A DNA stretch of 64,000 nucleotides. It comes from a virus. Taxonomy: Duplodnaviria > Caudoviricetes. Position 1 is the stretch's first letter. Each line of letters opens with the position of its first letter. A program made the position numbers and the translations under genes. Location of the stretch: the IMG/VR virus record IMGVR_UViG_3300029998_000597; one strand, written 5' to 3'. The notes beneath the pieces were generated by a model that did no database searches, was not told the origin of the DNA, and worked only from the letters and a program-made list of their open reading frames with translations. This document shows, piece after piece, positions 3,082 to 45,979 of this stretch.

Positions 3082-3422
3082 TAAAACAAATAAAAGAAAA
3101 GGGTTTTAAACCTATGAAATTCGCCATATTTAATTATATGGATGATAATGGGTATATAACTGAAATGGAAGGTATATTCAAAAGAAAATTTGCAATTTCT
3201 GATTTTGAGTATTTATATTTTGATTTAGAAGTGAATGAAAAAAATGGATTAAAATATAGAACCCATAATATATTGCAAAGGTTCTACGATTTACAAAATT
3301 TAGTTGAAGTTAAAATACAAAGTAATAAAGAACTACCAATGGTAAAATTATTCATATTGAAAGATGAAGGTCAAGTATTTCTTGTGAAATTACTGGACTT
3401 TAATTTAATAGAATTAATATAA
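3069..3422 (+). CDS. hypothetical protein
   Basis: 117 aa ORF overlapping the upstream stop. Confidence 0.7.
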   Translation: MQELIKQIKEKGFKPMKFAIFNYMDDNGYITEMEGIFKRKFAISDFEYLYFDLEVNEKNGLKYRTHNILQRFYDLQNLVEVKIQSNKELPMVKLFILKDEGQVFLVKLLDFNLIELI

Positions 3423-3431
3423 AATAAATAT

Positions 3432-3857
3432 ATGAAAAATTTAATAGAAATAAATATTCCAAATGAATATAAAAAATTAATTAAATATAATGATAATAAA
3501 ATAATTATTGATTTTATCAAAATAGATAAGAATAAAGAAATGGAGGATTTCTTTCGTTGTTTTTTAATCGATTTATCAATTGTTATTAAACCTGAATATC
3601 CTAATTCTGTATTTTATAAAGATAATAAAAATGATGAAGTTATTTTTGAATTATATCAGGATTCAGAAAATAAAGAAAAAAGGTATTTCTATGTTCATTA
3701 TGATAAAATTTGGTCAGTTTTTGGAAGTAACTTCGGTCTTAATTATAATGAAACTCAGTCCTTTATAAAAGACAGGGTGGAAGATACTCTAAAATTAGGA
3801 TCAGTAACACCTTGGAAGACAGGTCGTCGGAAAACGATTTGGTGGAAGATACTCTAA
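3432..3857 (+). CDS. hypothetical protein whose C-terminus is encoded by the mini-array
   Basis: VEDTLKLGSVTP is repeat 1; WKTGRRKTI is spacer 1; the stop lies inside repeat 2. Confidence 0.8.
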   Translation: MKNLIEINIPNEYKKLIKYNDNKIIIDFIKIDKNKEMEDFFRCFLIDLSIVIKPEYPNSVFYKDNKNDEVIFELYQDSENKEKRYFYVHYDKIWSVFGSNFGLNYNETQSFIKDRVEDTLKLGSVTPWKTGRRKTIWWKIL

Positions 3858-3925
3858 AATTAGGATCAGTAACACCAGATGTGGGAGGTAATAGTGTGAG
3901 AGTATGGTGGAAGAAACTCTAAAAT
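3776..3925. CRISPR. CRISPR-like mini-array, type VI-B-like repeat, no cas genes in window
   Basis: Identical 36-nt repeats GGTGGAAGATACTCTAAAATTAGGATCAGTAACACC at 3776-3811 and 3841-3876; 20-nt partial copy (1 mismatch) at 3906-3925; two unrelated 29-nt spacers; period exactly 65. Confidence 0.7.
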
Positions 3926-3964
3926 AAATAATAAATATTAATAAATTAAAAAAAAAGTAAAAAA

Positions 3965-4318
3965 ATGGCAAATTTAAGTTTTTCGGGTAAAATTACAGAA
4001 ATTGGTGTTACACAATCAGGAACTGGTAAAAATGGGGAATGGTCCAATACAACTATCAGAGTAGAAGAAACAGAGGGTGAACACCCAAATTCAATTATTT
4101 TTAGTGCATTAAATAAACAAGAAATTGTAGATACTTTATCAGTAGGTGCTATTGTTGAAGTATTATATAACGCAAAAACAAACGACTACAATGGTAAGAC
4201 ATATAATAGTTTAAATGTGTGGAAAATTAATAACACAGGAGGATCTCAGGAAATGCCTGATACAACACAAAAGACCACAACACAAGCACCATCGGAAGTA
4301 GATGATCTCCCATTTTAA
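3965..4318 (+). CDS. single-stranded DNA-binding protein (DUF3127-like OB fold)
   Basis: GKITEIG..SG..KNGEW, YNSLNVWKI, acidic tail ending DDLPF. Confidence 0.8.
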   Translation: MANLSFSGKITEIGVTQSGTGKNGEWSNTTIRVEETEGEHPNSIIFSALNKQEIVDTLSVGAIVEVLYNAKTNDYNGKTYNSLNVWKINNTGGSQEMPDTTQKTTTQAPSEVDDLPF

Positions 4319-5094: not shown

Positions 5095-5544
5095 ATGATA
5101 AGATTTTCGAAGGAAATACAAGGAACAAGGAATAGTGATGATTATGCTACACCAATTAAATTTTTAAAAGAATTAAATAAAGAATTTAGTTTCGATTTTG
5201 ATCCGTGCCCACTTAAAAGTGAAATTGATGGTCTTACAATTGAATGGAATGGTAATATTTATATCAACCCACCATATAGTAATATTGAACCATTTATCAT
5301 CAAAGGAATTGATGAAATAAAGGCTGGAAGGGCAAACACATGTGTTTATTTAATACCTTGTAGAAGCGATACAAAATATTGGCATAATTTAGTTTTAGAA
5401 TATGCTAGTGAAATTCGTTTCATTAAAGGTAGATTAAACTTTAACGAAAGCAAAAGTCCAGCACCTTTCCCGTGTGTTTTAGTTATATTTGATAATTTAT
5501 TAAATGGGGCTTGTAATTGTATTAGTCATTACCAAAACTTATAA
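5095..5544 (+). CDS. phage N6-adenine DNA methyltransferase (Dam-like)
   Basis: DDYATP, FDFDPCP, NPPY, RFIKGRLNF, APFP. Confidence 0.85.
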   Translation: MIRFSKEIQGTRNSDDYATPIKFLKELNKEFSFDFDPCPLKSEIDGLTIEWNGNIYINPPYSNIEPFIIKGIDEIKAGRANTCVYLIPCRSDTKYWHNLVLEYASEIRFIKGRLNFNESKSPAPFPCVLVIFDNLLNGACNCISHYQNL

Positions 5545-6267: not shown

Positions 6268-6945
6268 ATGACAAATACACAACGACACGCAAAAACAGAA
6301 TTGGAACTTTTAAGTAAAATACATTTGGACCCAGATAACCGTCCAATAGTGGAAAATTTTATACCAGAGATATTAGCTTTATGTGAAAAGTTTGGGAATA
6401 GTGGTAAAAGTGGTGCATCGGCACCTTATATAGCTGGAGCAATCGCATCAACCATTAAAAAGCTATTATCATTTAAACCAATTAGCCCAATCAGTGGACT
6501 CGATGAGGAATGGGGAGATGTATCAGATATTGCTGGTGGTTCAGAGGAATTATATCAAAATATGAGATGTGGTGGTATTCTTAAACATAGCAAGGACGGT
6601 CAGGCATCATATGTTGATGCAATTGTTTGGCGAGGGCAATACCCTGGAGATGAAGAATCGGAAAAATGGGATGATACTTTTACAGGTAGAGTATGCGGAT
6701 ATCATAGTTCTCAAAATATAAAATCATTTCCATTCACTCCAAAAACATTTTATGTTGATGTCATTCGAGAACAATTACCAGATGATTGGACAGAAGAGCC
6801 TTATATTGAAGGATCAGATTGGTACGATTCAAAAGAATTTGAAGAAACAGGTATTAAAACCTGGCACAAAAATAATTATCGATATTATATTAAGGATCAA
6901 AAACAATTAGATGAAGTATTTGAATATTATGATAGGAAAGATTAA
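6268..6945 (+). CDS. conserved phage hypothetical protein
   Basis: 225 aa; HAKTELELL, GKSGASA, PISPISG.DEEW motifs. Confidence 0.75.
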   Translation: MTNTQRHAKTELELLSKIHLDPDNRPIVENFIPEILALCEKFGNSGKSGASAPYIAGAIASTIKKLLSFKPISPISGLDEEWGDVSDIAGGSEELYQNMRCGGILKHSKDGQASYVDAIVWRGQYPGDEESEKWDDTFTGRVCGYHSSQNIKSFPFTPKTFYVDVIREQLPDDWTEEPYIEGSDWYDSKEFEETGIKTWHKNNYRYYIKDQKQLDEVFEYYDRKD

Positions 6946-7288
6946 ATATATGAAAAATTTTATAAAAAATATCTTAGGTAAGTGTATTGGTAAAGTTGAA
7001 TTCATAGTTACAATTACAAATGTCTCAGGTTGCGTTGAAAAATATACACTTGATTCAATGAAGAATGTCGAAAGCTATGTATGTGGGATAAACTCAGAAG
7101 CATATTGGATGGTATCTGAAATAGAAAAAATAAGAAGACTTAATTTCAATTTTAATAAAGAAGTAATACACACACCACTACATTTCTCCTTAGATACTGT
7201 CACAGAACGTGATAAATGTAGTGGTTATGAATATAATTTTTTAAAAATAAATGAAAGCCTAAAAAATATTAAACGAAAAGTATGGTAG
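6911..7288 (+). CDS. hypothetical protein
   Basis: ORF in the + run. Confidence 0.65.
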   Translation: MKYLNIMIGKIKYMKNFIKNILGKCIGKVEFIVTITNVSGCVEKYTLDSMKNVESYVCGINSEAYWMVSEIEKIRRLNFNFNKEVIHTPLHFSLDTVTERDKCSGYEYNFLKINESLKNIKRKVW

Positions 7289-7297
7289 AAAAAATAT

Positions 7298-7522
7298 ATG
7301 AAAGAATCAAATGAAATTTCAAACGCATTAAGTGTATTATGTGAAGCACTTCAAAACGACGAAGGCTATAGAATTGGTTGGGTTGTAAATATTGCAATGG
7401 CATATATTGATAACGAACGTTGGTACAAAGAAAAAACTGATAAAGAAGTGTTAGATGATAAAGATAAATTCATAATAGCAAACAATTCAGCAGAATATTT
7501 TATTAATAAACTTTGTAAATAA
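7298..7522 (+). CDS. hypothetical protein
   Basis: ORF in the + run. Confidence 0.7.
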   Translation: MKESNEISNALSVLCEALQNDEGYRIGWVVNIAMAYIDNERWYKEKTDKEVLDDKDKFIIANNSAEYFINKLCK

Positions 7523-15149: not shown

Positions 15150-17630
15150 ATGGAAGAAAATAAATATACAACTGAATTAAAAAAAGTATTGGCATTAGTA
15201 ACTAAAGATTTAGTTGAAGACTTTCCTACCAAAAAGATAACCATTGAATATTTTATGCTGGCGATTTTGCAATCAAAACAATCAATAGCATATAAAATGT
15301 TGATAAAATTTTTAGCAAAAGATGATATAAATGATTTGTTAGTTTATTTTTCTGAATTATTAAAAGAATTATCTGCGACCACTTTTAAGCCGAAAGTATT
15401 AAATAATATTGAAAAATCAATAGGATTCGATTTAGTTTTTAGTAATTGTTTAATAGCTGCTAATACAGAAAAAGAAAAATTAAACGATATTAAGATAGGG
15501 TCTGAACACGTATTATTATCAATACTTTCAAATGTTAAAGATATATCAAAACTAACTCACGTTGGTCTAAAATATGATAACCTATTCAATACCATTAATA
15601 CTATAAAACAAGGTGAAATAGCCAAATTTGACGAACAAAATGAAAATACAAACCAAAGCTATGTAGAAACAATACAAGGCCAGAAAAATAAACCATCTGG
15701 TAAAGCAAATATGATTAAATTGTATTGTACTAATTTAAATACATTAGCAAAACAAGGTAAAATAGATCAAATAGTTGGTAGAGAAGTTGAAATTAATCGT
15801 TTAATAAAAATTCTTGGTAGAAGAAATAAAAATAACATAATTTTAGTTGGTGATGGGGGTGTTGGCAAGAGTGCTATAATTTACGGCTTGGCTAATATGA
15901 TAGAAGAGGGTAAGGGTATGTTTCTTAATGGGAAAGAAATTTTATCTTTAGACTTATCATCTTTAATAGCTGGTACTTCATTCAGAGGGATGCTCGAAGA
16001 GAGATTGAATGGTGTTATAAATGAAATAAAAGCCAATAAAAATTATATGTTATTTATCGATGATATTCATTCTGTATTATCATCAAATTCCAATAATGCG
16101 TCTGATATTGGTGGTATATTATCAAAGGCCATGATAGATGGTGATATTCAATTAATAGCAACGACATCCTTTAAAGGATATAAAAATTCGATAGAGAACG
16201 AACCATCTTTAAACAGAAAATTTCAAAAAAGCGTTATTACTTCAACAACAATTGAACAAACAGAGAAGATATTATTTAATTCAAAAAAATACTATGAAAA
16301 GTATCATAATGTAAGCTATACGGACGAAGCCATTAGAGCTTGTGTAACGCTTGCAAATAAATATATCACAGAAAGGCACCTTCCAGACTCAGCAATTGAT
16401 ATAATGGACGAATGCGGCTCAGAAAAAAAGGTTTCTAACCTATACAATGAATCGGAACTTTTTGAATTAAAGAAAGAGCTTGAATTAAATAAGTTAAACG
16501 TCAAAGAAGCATACTCAGAAAATAATTTTGATATTGGTGATGGTTATAATTTAATATGTATTGAAATAGAAGGTAAGATAGTAGATTTAGAAAAAAATAA
16601 AAAATCACAATCTAAGAATAATATTAAAGAAATTACTGAAATCGATGTGTTTAATATTGTATCTGAAATGACAGGTGTCCCAATTAATAGGTTGACTACT
16701 TCGGAGAAGGAACGTTATTTAAACATTGAAAACAAATTAGGTGAAAGTATAATCGGCCAATCGGAAGCGATTAAAAAGGTTGCTCAATCCATGAAAAGAA
16801 GCCGAATGGGACTTGGTAGAAAAAATAAGCCTAATGGAGTTTTTATGTTTGTTGGGGAATCTGGGTGTGGAAAAACTTTTTTAGCTAAAAAATTAGCTGA
16901 AGAAATATTTGGTAGTGAAGATGCTTTAGTTAGATTTGATATGAGCGAATACTCTGACCAAACAGCTGTAAATAAGATGGTTGGAACTGGAAGTGGATTC
17001 GTTGGGTATGATCAAGGTGGTTTATTAACGGAAGCCATTAAAAACAAGCCATATTGTGTATTATTACTGGATGAAATTGAAAAGGCTCATAATGATGTTT
17101 ATAATATATTTTTACAGATTTTTGATGAAAGTTTTGCTACCGATAATACAGGTGTTCGTGTTTCATTTAAAAATGTTATTATTATTATGACATCGAACGT
17201 TGGCGCAAAAGATGCGGCTTCATTAGGTCGCGGAACTGGTTTTCAAATAAATGTGGAAGATAATAAAAAGAATATAATTGAAAAAGCCCTCAAAGGTAAG
17301 TTTCCGCCAGAATTCATTAGTAGACTTAATGACGTTATTTATTTCAACTCATTAACCGAAGACAACTTAAAATCAATTATCGAGTTAGAATTGAGTAAAT
17401 TAAAAAAACGTTTGAATGAGATTAATTTTGATGTTGAATTTGGAGATGATGTTACGGACTATTTATTTAAAACAATCGGTTCAGATAAAAACAGTGGTGC
17501 ACGAAAGATCAATAGGGCCATTGAAAATGAAATTGAAAATGTTATTTGTGATATATACTTGGAAAATGAATTAGAAAATGGATATATATTTAATGTGAAT
17601 ATAAATAATAATAAAATCGAAATTAAATGA
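15150..17630 (+). CDS. clpC: ClpC/ClpB-family AAA+ chaperone
   Basis: Clp_N region, GDGGVGKS, RHLPDSAID, GESGCGKT, RFDMSEY, LLDEIEKAH, GARK. Confidence 0.9.
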   Translation: MEENKYTTELKKVLALVTKDLVEDFPTKKITIEYFMLAILQSKQSIAYKMLIKFLAKDDINDLLVYFSELLKELSATTFKPKVLNNIEKSIGFDLVFSNCLIAANTEKEKLNDIKIGSEHVLLSILSNVKDISKLTHVGLKYDNLFNTINTIKQGEIAKFDEQNENTNQSYVETIQGQKNKPSGKANMIKLYCTNLNTLAKQGKIDQIVGREVEINRLIKILGRRNKNNIILVGDGGVGKSAIIYGLANMIEEGKGMFLNGKEILSLDLSSLIAGTSFRGMLEERLNGVINEIKANKNYMLFIDDIHSVLSSNSNNASDIGGILSKAMIDGDIQLIATTSFKGYKNSIENEPSLNRKFQKSVITSTTIEQTEKILFNSKKYYEKYHNVSYTDEAIRACVTLANKYITERHLPDSAIDIMDECGSEKKVSNLYNESELFELKKELELNKLNVKEAYSENNFDIGDGYNLICIEIEGKIVDLEKNKKSQSKNNIKEITEIDVFNIVSEMTGVPINRLTTSEKERYLNIENKLGESIIGQSEAIKKVAQSMKRSRMGLGRKNKPNGVFMFVGESGCGKTFLAKKLAEEIFGSEDALVRFDMSEYSDQTAVNKMVGTGSGFVGYDQGGLLTEAIKNKPYCVLLLDEIEKAHNDVYNIFLQIFDESFATDNTGVRVSFKNVIIIMTSNVGAKDAASLGRGTGFQINVEDNKKNIIEKALKGKFPPEFISRLNDVIYFNSLTEDNLKSIIELELSKLKKRLNEINFDVEFGDDVTDYLFKTIGSDKNSGARKINRAIENEIENVICDIYLENELENGYIFNVNINNNKIEIK

Positions 17631-42393: not shown

Positions 42394-43526
42394 TGTTTAA
42401 TTTCTTCATTTAATATTTCATCAATTATTTTATTAGAATCAAATGGAAGGCTTTTGGTTGATATTATATTAATATCATCAATTGGCATTTTCCTAATCTT
42501 AAGTAATAATTCTTTTACAAATAGTGGATCAACTTTTTCTGGTAAATTTGATTTATCATACAATTCCTGTAAACCAGCGATATCGCGTTCTGCATCTTCA
42601 ATTATTTTATCTAAAGGAACTTCACCACGTTTGATTGAAAGTAAATAGTCGGCATTTGGGCGTTTAACGGTAAAAGTGCCTGTAGTGGCAATCGAAACCC
42701 CCACATCGATGAGCCTCCGACAATGCAATAGGTTCTTACCATCTATAAATGAACCACTTAGAGTTTGTCCGTGCTTTTTAACATCAACATATCTTTGGGT
42801 GTTCCTATTTTTTAACCATTCATTATACTCCTTCCACTCCTTCATGAACTTTGAATATGCTTCAACATTATAATATATCATCACAAATGGCGTTTCTCCT
42901 TTTTTAATAGATGACAATCTAACCTCATTACTATTTTCACCAATTATTCCTCTATAACCATCATTATTGTAATCATAATAAACGGCATAACAATCTTTCA
43001 TATGATCCAATCGAACTAAGCCACATTTTTCTTGTAATAGCCCATTGTCGTTCAAATATTCTTTAAAAGAATATGTTTTACCATTATTATAAAAATATAT
43101 AAAATCTAAAGGTGTCTTTAATTTATAATCATTTTCATTGTAATTTAATTTTTTACCCAACGAATTTGCCTTTGAAATCTGACTGTAACCATATGAAGTA
43201 AAGGCATTTGCGCATTTTTTTGTTACAAACACATCCCTATTTTCACGTATTAGTTCAAATTGAGGTGATGTATGTAAAATATATTCATCATCAGAAAATA
43301 GCAATTCTAAACAGGTCGGATTTCCGACAGAACATAATTCTAAAAATCGACGAACCTCATAGTACGTTTCATCTTTAGTTACATTAATTTGCTCGGTATA
43401 GCCAAATGATAATAAATTATCAATAGGGCATAAAAAAATACCCTTTTTATCTAAATCACTGGTTTCAATATTTGTACCATAAGCAACGCTACCAACAATA
43501 GCTTCAAAAATTAAATTTTCAATCAT
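42390..43526 (-). CDS. RlaP-like (Nuc-transf) nucleotidyltransferase
   Basis: VGSVAYGT..SDLDKKGIF, NPTCLELL, DGKNLLHCRRL, LLSIKRGE. Confidence 0.8.
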   Translation of the reverse strand: MIENLIFEAIVGSVAYGTNIETSDLDKKGIFLCPIDNLLSFGYTEQINVTKDETYYEVRRFLELCSVGNPTCLELLFSDDEYILHTSPQFELIRENRDVFVTKKCANAFTSYGYSQISKANSLGKKLNYNENDYKLKTPLDFIYFYNNGKTYSFKEYLNDNGLLQEKCGLVRLDHMKDCYAVYYDYNNDGYRGIIGENSNEVRLSSIKKGETPFVMIYYNVEAYSKFMKEWKEYNEWLKNRNTQRYVDVKKHGQTLSGSFIDGKNLLHCRRLIDVGVSIATTGTFTVKRPNADYLLSIKRGEVPLDKIIEDAERDIAGLQELYDKSNLPEKVDPLFVKELLLKIRKMPIDDINIISTKSLPFDSNKIIDEILNEEIKQ

Positions 43527-44805
43527 AAATTTCTTTATTTAATATTTCTTCTATATTATTAAATTCCGTATAAGGAATTCTAATTAACTTAATATTATTA
43601 TCAAGGCAATATTGGGTTTTTATTTTATCATTTCTTTGAATTGATTCAAAACCTTCTATTCCACCAAATCTATCTACTTGTTTATAATGTTGTTCCCCAT
43701 CGTATTCAATACAAGTATTATATTTAGGAATATAAAAATCAAATGGGAGAGAATATTTATATCTACAATCATCAAATTTATGTTCCCGAATAAATTTAAG
43801 TTTAAAATTTGTTAATGTTTGATTTACAATTTTTTCACCTTTACTTTCATTACATTTAGGACATCCCTGACCTTTTAAATGATTATGAGGTGTTTGCCAA
43901 AATTCTCCGTGAATAGGGCATATTATTTTAACCTTTATATTGGTTCCTTTATATTCTACCTTTGAATAATCATATTTATCTCTATGAATTAGTTTTGTTT
44001 TTTCAATAAAATAATTATAATCCATATAACTACCTGAACACTTAGGGCATCCTTTACCATCTAAATGACTATTTGGTGTTTGCCAAAATTCGCCATGAAT
44101 CGGGCATGTTATATCTACTTTAATTATTGAATTTATGTAATCAACATTTTCATATGTGAATTTATTATTATGTTTTTCTTTAGATTTTTCAATGAATGTA
44201 TCTAAATCCATAAAGTTTCCGCCACATTTAGAACATCCATAACCAATCATGTGTGAATTAGCTTTTTGATAAAACTCCCCATGTTCTGGGCAAACTATAC
44301 ATACGTCACTCTCACTATTTACATAATTAGTCTTGGAATAATCATATTTAAAATTATGTTTTTTATTAGATTTTTTAATAAAGTATTCAGTATTATTAGT
44401 TTTGCTTAAAGATCTATTAACATTTCCACACATAGAACATCCCCTACCTTGTAAATGATCACTTGGTGTTTGCCAAAATTCACCATGTATAGGACAAATG
44501 ATACATACTTTAGTTTGAGCATTTTTATAATCTATCTTAGTATAATTATATTTATCTCCATGTATCACAATTGCTTTAGAGATAAAAATATCATTGTTGT
44601 GCCTAAGTTTATCACTTTTTAATTTTATTCCACATTTGTTACACCCATTACCCACCAAATGGGAATTTGGTAATTGTAAAAATTCGCCATGTTCTGGACA
44701 AATTATGATTACTTTGATATTTGATTTTACATATTCAACCAGTGAATAATCATATTTGTCACCATGTTTTGCTTTTGCTTTTTTAATAAATTCATCTTTC
44801 GTCAT
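43519..44805 (-). CDS. CPxHG zinc-repeat endonuclease, PD-(D/E)xK C-terminus
   Basis: 5 CPxHG repeats; SKGE; LPFDFYIP..IEYDGEQHY; LIRIPY. Confidence 0.75.
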   Translation of the reverse strand: MTKDEFIKKAKAKHGDKYDYSLVEYVKSNIKVIIICPEHGEFLQLPNSHLVGNGCNKCGIKLKSDKLRHNNDIFISKAIVIHGDKYNYTKIDYKNAQTKVCIICPIHGEFWQTPSDHLQGRGCSMCGNVNRSLSKTNNTEYFIKKSNKKHNFKYDYSKTNYVNSESDVCIVCPEHGEFYQKANSHMIGYGCSKCGGNFMDLDTFIEKSKEKHNNKFTYENVDYINSIIKVDITCPIHGEFWQTPNSHLDGKGCPKCSGSYMDYNYFIEKTKLIHRDKYDYSKVEYKGTNIKVKIICPIHGEFWQTPHNHLKGQGCPKCNESKGEKIVNQTLTNFKLKFIREHKFDDCRYKYSLPFDFYIPKYNTCIEYDGEQHYKQVDRFGGIEGFESIQRNDKIKTQYCLDNNIKLIRIPYTEFNNIEEILNKEIYD

Positions 44806-44965
44806 TCTTTAAATTGTTAATACTCTTATTTTCTTCACACCATTTTCTAATAAAATTAGAAATCATTTTAGATCTATTAAAACCAAATTCATCACTAATT
44901 TTAATAAAATCATATTTTAGATCTGGATCAATCGTAAAATTAATTGTTGTTTTTTTATTTTTCAT
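44792..44965 (-). CDS. ribbon-helix-helix protein, 57 aa (not in ORF track)
   Basis: MKNKKTTINFTIDPDLKYDFIKISDEFGFNRSKMISNFIRKWCEE...; overlaps the nuclease start; TATTTATA at 44979-44986. Confidence 0.75.
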   Translation of the reverse strand: MKNKKTTINFTIDPDLKYDFIKISDEFGFNRSKMISNFIRKWCEENKSINNLKNDER

Positions 44966-45055
44966 ATTCATTTCTATTTATAAATATACGGGAATGGAAT
45001 TTATTCACGTTTTTATTTAAATTAATTTCCAAAAACTTGTTATTTATAAATTATT

Positions 45056-45736
45056 CTAAATAGCCTTAATTAATAGTGGGGTTACTCCTCCTTGAAAACA
45101 GCCACATATGGGCAGTAATCCGTCACCCCTGGCATCACAATTAGGTAATTTAGTTATACCATTATAATAAGTCTTTTTATATTTATCTTCAATCTTTGAT
45201 ACTTCAATAAGAACGTGAAATCCCCCGTGAGTTTGCACAAAAGTTATTGCACTCTCGTTAATTACTTCAACAATACTTGACTTCATTTCTTCAATAGTTG
45301 TATTATCAAAGTCAAAATCCATAAAAACAGTTCTACTACAAGCTTTTTGGATAGCTGTTAATGCTTCAGCTTGTGGGTTATATCCGCTATATTTATCAAA
45401 ACATAAATCTATTAACTTTTTAGCTAAATTCTTACCAGCTTTCTCGTAACTTCTTGGGTTTGGTGTGATATATAAACACATTGATTCAACAGGAATTGGT
45501 TCACCTTTGTATTTATATGTGCCAAGTTCACATTCCATTTGTTTAATTTTATCAAATAAAAATTCTTTATTTGATGTTATTCTCTTCAATTGAACCTTAT
45601 CTTTTAATAATTTATCGGTATATTTATTACGACATAATAATGTAACATAGTATCCCTCCCCATCTTCTAACTCTGGCAACCAATCTATAAAATTACACAA
45701 AGCAACTTCGTCAGTGATTATCTTATAATTTTCCAT
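45056..45736 (-). CDS. hypothetical protein with AEP/PrimPol-like motifs
   Basis: MDFDFD (DxD) and QTHGGFHV. Confidence 0.4.
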   Translation of the reverse strand: MENYKIITDEVALCNFIDWLPELEDGEGYYVTLLCRNKYTDKLLKDKVQLKRITSNKEFLFDKIKQMECELGTYKYKGEPIPVESMCLYITPNPRSYEKAGKNLAKKLIDLCFDKYSGYNPQAEALTAIQKACSRTVFMDFDFDNTTIEEMKSSIVEVINESAITFVQTHGGFHVLIEVSKIEDKYKKTYYNGITKLPNCDARGDGLLPICGCFQGGVTPLLIKAI

Positions 45737-45739
45737 ATA

Positions 45740-45979
45740 TTATTTGTATTTTCTAATTAGTTTAAATATTTCATTCAAATCACTAAATTTAAAATCCCCA
45801 TCACGTTTTATTGGATAATAACCAAGTGTAAAACCATGATTTGCTTGGAATTTTTCAACAACTTTTTTATTATTAATTTTATCAATATAAATCCACGGAA
45901 AATTAGCACATAAATTAAGATTAATACCAATCTTTTTTAAACGATCAACGAATTTAGTTAATTCAATGAAGTTTTCCAT
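45740..45979 (-). CDS. hypothetical protein
   Basis: ORF in the - run. Confidence 0.7.
   Translation of the reverse strand: MENFIELTKFVDRLKKIGINLNLCANFPWIYIDKINNKKVVEKFQANHGFTLGYYPIKRDGDFKFSDLNEIFKLIRKYK

Follow-up and report, generated by a model that had tools for sequence, protein, structure and literature searches.

In the TnpB and IscB systems, the guide-RNA scaffold (omega RNA) overlaps the 3′ end of the gene of its own protein, a 400-aa nuclease that uses the RNA. A single stretch of DNA is there both the end of a coding region and an RNA-guide element, and the phage locus described here is alike in this respect. The omega RNA carries one guide and forms no repeat–spacer array, however, whereas the phage gene is joined to such an array and codes for a 115-residue domain without nuclease features.

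[quoted passage not shown] 2019, PMC6858448), which hold one to a few spacers, occur in viruses without cas genes and turn over between close relatives. Their spacers resemble the genome of the carrier or of its relatives with point differences, which at the carrier's own site have been read as a sign of interviral targeting, and the adaptation and interference proteins are presumed to be those of the host. The phage arrays are alike in their small size, turnover, lack of cas genes and presumed use of host proteins, and five of their spacers resemble the carrier's genome with differences of 1–4 bases. They differ from the archaeal mini-arrays in their setting: the latter are intergenic and lie behind a non-coding, host-like leader, whereas here the 'leader' is a conserved protein-coding gene, the first repeat is predicted to code for part of a folded protein, and spacers lie in coding sequence. 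The phage arrays also differ in belonging to a family of more than 1000 protein clusters, often with several copies per genome, and in that some of their spacers match the carrier perfectly (four, with five more that differ by 1–4 bases).

Racr and Cracr elements (bioRxiv 10.1101/2024.10.29.618823) are likewise Cas-less repeat units or small arrays in phages, sometimes located beside anti-defence genes. They have been reported for types I and V-A, with spacers directed against toxin genes or the promoters of host cas genes; unlike the arrays described here, they neither overlap coding sequence nor turn over by fresh integration of phage DNA.

Type VI-B (Cas13b) arrays of Bacteroidota have a 36-nt repeat, 30-nt spacers, complementary 5′-GUUG/CAAC-3′ repeat ends and a poly-U open loop (Smargon et al., bioRxiv 10.1101/092577). 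In Flavobacterium columnare, type II-C Cas1–Cas2 fills such arrays in trans, and many of the spacers that they accept are self-derived (Hoikkala et al. 2021, PMC8092290). A first repeat inside a gene, or translated spacers, were not found in the literature searched on virus-borne mini-arrays, RNA anti-CRISPRs and crRNA-like arrays.

RESULTS

A CRISPR-type repeat forms the last conserved codons of a phage gene

The window (the whole 64,000-nt stretch of DNA that was analysed) is part of a 147-kb IMG/VR virus record (G000) of an uncultured giant phage; the record is ~41% complete and has a GC content of 28%. It contains a 141-aa ORF with an ATG start (3432..3857, + strand; present in the program-made ORF list), which belongs to a large uncharacterised family of uncultured-phage proteins. 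A 263-kb ENA contig codes for an identical protein. The gene body (3432..3775, +) codes for a predicted folded domain and is followed by repeat 1 (3776..3811, +), a 36-nt element in dual use as a CRISPR-type repeat and as codons 116–127, which read VEDTLKLGSVTP. Base 1 of the repeat is the third base of codon 115, and codon 127 takes the first base of the spacer. Spacer 1 (3812..3840, +; 29 nt, with 45% GC compared with 28% for the genome) has the predicted translation WKTGRRKTI (codons 128–136). Repeat 2 (3841..3876, +) is identical to repeat 1, but the 65-nt period gives it a different reading frame (WWKIL), and the ORF accordingly stops within it (TAA, 3855–3857). Spacer 2 (3877..3905, +; 29 nt, 41% GC) is untranslated, and only the first of the two spacers lies in coding sequence. 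The array is closed by a terminal repeat remnant (3906..3925, +) that consists of the first 20 nt of the repeat with one mismatch.

Two exact 36-nt copies and a 20-nt remnant, separated by 29-nt spacers, identify this element as an array. The 36-nt repeat occurs in exactly two full copies where shuffled sequences are expected to give 0 matches, and apart from these copies and the remnant no other copy is present on either strand of the 147-kb record. The gene body lies where a CRISPR leader would be expected: the intact repeats follow directly downstream of it, and the truncated terminal repeat is at the opposite end of the array. Each element that the preliminary description had read from this sequence, namely the ORF, the in-frame first repeat, the WKTGRRKTI spacer and the stop placed in repeat 2 by the 65-nt period, is present as described. 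The two spacers match nothing in the 147-kb record or in any fetched relative locus, and an exact-match search of IMG/VR, from which the record of the window and those close to it may be missing, did not identify them either. A blastn search with the locus gave no match, and Rfam models identify nothing in the window and nothing at E values up to 10 on 3700–3960.

It had also been suggested that the mRNA contains anti-repeat sequence and could sponge its own guides. The mRNA has the same sense as a guide RNA from this array, and no reverse-complement copy of the repeat exists in the window; the mRNA therefore could not sponge its own guides by pairing.

Genome neighbourhood

The next gene, which codes for a DUF3127 protein (3965..4318, +), is on the same strand as the array. 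No terminator-like site lies between the two, and the array is therefore placed within a co-directional block of genes. This block of small genes also includes a Dam-like methylase (5095–5544) and, 2.4 kb downstream of the array, a homologue of the type I Thoeris inhibitor Tad3 (6268..6945, +; Pfam PF25185, E 2.8e-22), which is the one homologue of a known anti-defence protein in the block.

An A/T-rich motif of ~30 nt is common to positions 3420–3451, 6938–6969 and 7286–7317, where it overlaps the start codons of three genes; it may represent a common translation-start or promoter context. Elsewhere in the window are an IMP dehydrogenase/GMP reductase-like gene (1152–2198) and a gene for a ClpB-like double AAA+ ATPase (15150–17630). 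A DnaB-like helicase gene (L024:3368–5887, corresponding to 43368–45887 of G000) is interrupted by a LAGLIDADG homing-endonuclease domain, which is probably an intein.

Predicted structure of the repeat-encoded region

AlphaFold, supplied with an alignment of 71 relatives, gives a confident model of the protein (pLDDT 93.1). In this model, repeat 1 codes for the end of a helix formed by residues 105–120, and a strand (residues 126–129) spans the repeat–spacer junction. The repeat-encoded residues are thus predicted to be part of the fold.

The fold has no counterpart in the collections searched. Foldseek against the PDB gave a best E value of 0.03 and no relative outside the family, a VIA-wide structure search gave a best Z of 4.2, and the Atlas returned viral hypotheticals only. 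At the sequence level, neither Pfam, PHROGs nor the PDB, the last also queried with a sequence profile, contains a relative of the 141-aa protein, and tblastn of two family members against GenBank phages produced no match. PADLOC gave the ORF a faint match (E 0.0015, 14.8 bits) to a model for DRT reverse transcriptases, which was judged to be noise. Neither the model nor the structure searches revealed marks of a nuclease or an RNA binder on the 115-residue domain. The protein had been put forward as the natural partner or effector of the array, and a comparison with RNA-binding folds had been proposed as a check. The confident model matches no such fold and no nuclease, paralogues without arrays exist, and linkage is what connects the protein to the array; the proposed role is not borne out.

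The gene–array fusion recurs across a large protein family

The motif is present at the end of each of eleven homologues with 49–67% identity, and the tails that come after it are unrelated. Several of these tails finish in an out-of-frame reading of the second repeat, and two hold a second in-frame copy. At the DNA level the layout is common to the homologues, but the spacers differ and the repeats vary slightly. A profile search with the protein recovers 1159 protein clusters (312 at E 1e-10), and nearly all of the 133 family representatives that were aligned at their C-termini have the 12-residue motif and a variable tail. A second in-frame copy is present in 34 of these representatives, and 35 have an out-of-frame W-K reading of repeat 2. 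The tail lengths of the 133 profile matches (71% with tails of at least 10 residues) were disregarded, since tail columns in the query profile bias them. The coding fusion persists down to ~25% protein identity. Motifs resembling VEDTLKLGSVTP, followed by variable tails and further DNA repeats, are thus found both among the closer homologues and across the 1159-cluster family, in agreement with what the preliminary description had expected of homologues. Its refuting case, a one-off insertion that happens to be fused in frame, is excluded by this recurrence.

Of the 34 gene ends that were parsed, in whole phage records and in loci, 24 have one or more spacers, with 36-nt repeats and 27–33-nt spacers, and the arrays contain 1–7 full repeats. 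Among 64 spacers, 37 are 30 nt and 20 are 29 nt in length (range 27–33 nt), and their GC content, with a mean of 39%, is mostly above that of the carrier. Single phages can hold many members of the family (9 copies in G001, a 212-kb record, and 8 in G006), and different repeat variants are present together within one phage. Paralogues without arrays have kept the domain and lost the repeat-end motifs. One carrier (G008, the record behind locus L043) is a complete 51-kb phage with 50% GC and terminal repeats, which has two copies of the family, each with its own type of repeat; the design thus extends beyond AT-rich giant phages.

Some members extend the arrangement. The proteins P0013 (760 aa), P0021 (588 aa) and P0015 (346 aa) are single ORFs with 3–6 tandem copies of the whole domain, each followed by in-frame repeat–spacer units that lead straight into the next domain. 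Three regions of G006 (the record behind L040), near 31–33 kb, 43 kb and 70–71 kb, contain 'fossil' arrays with 3–6 repeats that have diverged at up to 9 of 36 bases. All spacers of these arrays are exactly 30 nt, and the arrays read as ORFs of up to 555 aa; it seems that they have turned into ordinary protein repeat regions.

Spacer turnover and constraint at the DNA level

Comparisons between close relatives show that the spacers are replaced rapidly. In one pair of loci (L005 and L057), the genes are 97% identical over 330 nt and the downstream flanks are 85% identical, yet the arrays, with two and three spacers, have no spacer in common. In another pair of contigs (L017 and L018), the genes are identical and one spacer is present or absent. 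Gain or loss of spacers had been predicted to rewrite the protein tail, and the first pair bears this out: wholly different spacers behind nearly the same gene give different tails. The arrays are also polar, with the truncated copy always distal to the gene, both in the window and in relatives.

The repeat is constrained as DNA as well as protein. Base 1 of the repeat occupies the third position of a codon whose amino acid is free to vary, yet 24 of 27 genes have G there. The valine that opens the repeat is encoded by GTG in 19 of 27 genes, whereas the conserved valine of the WSVF motif, twenty codons upstream, is encoded by GTT in 25 of 27. In a pair of genes with 70% identity (L049 and L050), the repeats are identical at 35 of 36 positions. 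Arrays go together with the terminal motifs (26 of 33 genes with the motifs carry an array, compared with 3 of 18; p 2.5e-5), and three of the 'array-less' rows in this count are register errors of the parser.

For nine spacers in four phages (G002, G003, G008 and G010), a match was found in the carrier's own genome, outside its arrays. Four of the matches are perfect, three are at 29/30, one is at 28/30 and one more is at 26/30. Each of the three 29/30 matches differs by one transition, at spacer position 10 or 13. Relative to the ORFs that they match, the self-like spacers are oriented in sense in four cases and in antisense in three, and at least one perfectly matching spacer is antisense to an 811-aa ORF. 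An A is found four bases downstream of the protospacer in 8 of 9 cases, and may tentatively be regarded as a motif. Among the eleven phages, the self-like spacers match no phage other than their carrier, and ~80% of all spacers have no identified source. G003 (the record behind L052) contains two neighbouring arrays in which 6 of 9 spacers, the three with 29/30 matches among them, derive from the same phage's genome; the protospacers are located at 1821, 3406, 27607, 65268, 67881 and 160646, all six with an A at the +4 position downstream.

Together, these features provide good support for the gene end being a genuine CRISPR-type integration site that is built into a coding gene.

Similarity to type VI-B arrays and absence of cas genes

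The repeat looks like that of a type VI-B (Cas13b) system. As in type VI-B arrays, the repeat is 36 nt long, the spacers are ~30 nt (29 nt in the window, with a mode of 30 nt in the family), the repeat ends are complementary over 4 nt and the array is read from the leader side. The locus is also alike in having no cas1 and cas2 of its own and in its self-derived spacers, which are tolerated in F. columnare. The repeat of one relative has the same first 10 nt as the PspCas13b repeat, the latter as printed in a primer.

Several properties differ from those of type VI-B arrays. The repeat ends in the window are GGUG/CACC rather than GUUG/CAAC. Across 21 repeats, positions 1, 3, 4, 33, 34 and 36 are nearly invariant, and the 2/35 pair varies without co-variation. 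The phage loop is A-rich (AAAAUU in the window) instead of poly-U. RNAalifold finds no consensus structure for the 21 repeats, and the folds of single repeats have z-scores from −3.7 to +1.7; the repeat in the window folds with −5 kcal/mol and a z-score of −0.37. The array is located in a phage and inside a gene, with no cas13b or csx27/28 nearby, and no host array with this repeat was found. A search of JGI metagenomes with a degenerate pattern of the 36-nt repeat returned four gene-fused phage arrays and one chance match, and no host-type array. Membership in type VI-B is unproven, given the A-rich loop and the lack of an effector gene, a consensus fold and a host array.

None of ten phage records, including the complete 51-kb genome, contains cas1. 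Searches with Pfam, PADLOC and PHROGs identify no Cas effector, cas13b and csx27/28 included, in the large ORFs of the 147-kb record, which is only 41% complete. Integration is presumably carried out by host enzymes, most likely host Cas1–Cas2, since the phages carry none.

Modest signs that the arrays are kept translatable

Weak to moderate signs in the sequences suggest that the arrays are kept translatable. In the coding frame, as set by the preceding repeat, 47 of 64 spacers are free of stop codons; for the two remaining frames the count is 71 of 128 (Fisher p 0.018). When only first spacers are counted, the difference is not significant (17 of 24 and 26 of 48). ORFs traverse 24 spacers, whereas 15.8 ± 3.7 are traversed after spacer shuffling (p 0.02). 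Where arrays are read in frame and their repeats have diverged, codon position 3 accounts for 54 of 118 differences (p 0.003), and proteins of 555–760 aa read through several units of domain plus array. The signals agree in direction but are of modest strength (p 0.02 to 0.003); they derive from ~25 arrays, and a single phage (G006) accounts for part of them.

DISCUSSION

Rewriting of a protein tail by spacer integration

The explanation that we prefer, without regarding it as probable, is that rewriting of the tail by spacer integration is the retained function, in which a conserved scaffold displays a fast-changing C-terminal peptide. It is preferred because it is the only reading that needs the coding fusion and because the positive statistical signals speak for it. 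In this mechanism, the 3′ end of the gene would be a working acceptor for spacer integration, with the gene body in the place of the leader and the last 36 nt of the conserved coding region as the first repeat. An integrase, most likely host Cas1–Cas2, would insert a 29–30-nt fragment between the gene body and the repeat and duplicate the repeat. The duplicated repeat would restore the C-terminal helix and strand of the domain, and the new spacer would provide the next ~10 codons. A 30-nt spacer would bring the next repeat into frame and add a 22-residue module, whereas a 29-nt spacer, as in the window, would shift the frame, so that the next repeat supplies a stop and the tail has 14 residues. 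We infer both the identity of the integrating enzyme and that the peptide, rather than an RNA, is the selected product.

Some observations speak against this explanation. The first spacer contains an in-frame stop in 7 of 24 cases, and many tails are consequently only 2–9 residues long. The diverged repeats contain 64 non-synonymous and 28 synonymous codon differences. We know of no function for a random 10-residue peptide.

Alternative explanations

The strongest alternative, which we nonetheless consider unlikely, is that the array is a source of guide RNAs. Gene and array would share a transcript, from which a host effector (Cas13b-like, or Cas9 together with a host tracrRNA) would process the guides, for use against co-infecting relatives or to occupy the effector, and translation of the first units would be incidental. 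The type VI-B-like features of the array (36-nt repeat, ~30-nt spacers, complementary 4-nt ends), the 10 nt shared with the PspCas13b repeat in one relative and the nearby Thoeris inhibitor homologue are consistent with such a role. So is the absence of cas genes, as in the archaeal virus mini-arrays, and the resemblance of spacers to the carrier's genome, five of them with 1–4 point changes, is the pattern that was attributed to interviral targeting in those viruses (Medvedeva et al. 2019, PMC6858448). Four spacers match the carrier perfectly, however, at least one of them antisense to the 811-aa ORF, and the 21 repeats have no consensus RNA fold, with z-scores that extend to positive values and that of the window close to zero. 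In the type VI-B format a spacer is followed by a full repeat, and a last repeat of only ~20 nt would therefore leave the final guide disabled. Different repeat variants coexist in one phage, and the JGI metagenomes yielded no host array with the repeat. A guide function would also leave the coding first repeat unexplained across the whole family.

The gene end could instead act as a sink for spacers, mimicking the host leader–repeat junction on a high-copy phage genome; host Cas1–Cas2 would then be diverted, and the arrays would be the scars of this diversion. All spacers traced so far derive from the phage's own genome and were taken in both orientations, as would be expected of a decoy of this kind. 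The many family copies per genome (9 in G001, 8 in G006), the DNA-level constraint on the repeat ends, the fast turnover of spacers and the anti-defence gene in the neighbourhood also agree with it. It would not account for the conserved, well-folded domain or for the signs of translational constraint, and its benefit would go to the phage population rather than to the infecting genome. The ~80% of spacers without an identified source also weigh against a sink for phage DNA, and we regard this explanation as quite improbable.

We give little credence to a neutral origin, in which the protein motif is by chance close to a host repeat and off-target insertions are tolerated, altering only a dispensable tail. 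Stops in a third of the first spacers would be expected on this basis, as would array-less paralogues in which the domain is kept and the terminal motifs are gone. In E. coli, Nivala et al. (2018) reportedly observed that non-canonical integration can give rise to new arrays. A chance resemblance is difficult to reconcile with the synonymous positions of the repeat ends, which are conserved against the codon preference of the genome (GTG versus GTT, and G at the third base of the variable codon), with a repeat identical at 35 of 36 positions where the gene is 70% identical, and with a fusion that persists to ~25% protein identity.

A decoy made of RNA, of the Racr or crRNA-like kind, in which the repeats soak up a host Cas protein and the content of the spacers is irrelevant, is very unlikely. 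Phage-borne repeat units and crRNA-like arrays that inhibit CRISPR–Cas are documented for types I and V-A (bioRxiv 10.1101/2024.10.29.618823), and an anti-defence gene is present in the neighbourhood here, but the same study reports none for type VI-B. An RNA decoy would need neither the rapid and complete turnover of spacers nor spacers derived from self, and it leaves the coding fusion unexplained.

Explanations that do not involve CRISPR were rejected as scarcely credible. Iterons for replication or partition can lie inside or beside the gene of their initiator protein, as in lambda O, and some family members are predicted to translate whole arrays as 22-residue repeats, as a tandem-repeat protein or a multi-core peptide precursor would; but the spacers (27–33 nt) are not confined to multiples of three, 27 of 64 are not 30 nt and the period in the window is 65, they have no sequence relationship to one another and are copies of other parts of the genome, repeats are identical within an array while the genes diverge, the terminal repeat is truncated, and the whole spacer set is replaced between genes that are 97% identical.

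Implications

CRISPR arrays are treated as non-coding, whereas the first repeat of the array described here is also the end of a folded protein, across more than 1000 phage protein clusters. Under the preferred explanation, tail rewriting, these phages may have turned CRISPR adaptation into a protein-engineering device, in which 10-residue peptides are taken largely from their own DNA and selection keeps the cassettes readable. We offer this broader proposal tentatively. If true, it would constitute a new, integrase-driven form of protein diversification that differs from both diversity-generating retroelements and shufflons. With functional tails, the integration of spacers would be an engine of protein mutagenesis and a new use of the adaptation machinery, and it may serve as a tool for recording or diversification.

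The alternatives would carry other consequences. If an RNA is the product, the loci would be the first example of a large family in which phage arrays have type VI-B-like repeats but no cas genes, and in which the leader is a gene. If the gene end is a decoy, it would be a phage strategy for diverting spacer acquisition by the host, which was not found described in the literature searched. Whichever reading applies, integration into phage genomes is frequent in nature and often uses the phage's own DNA, which is relevant to the competition between host and phage over adaptation.
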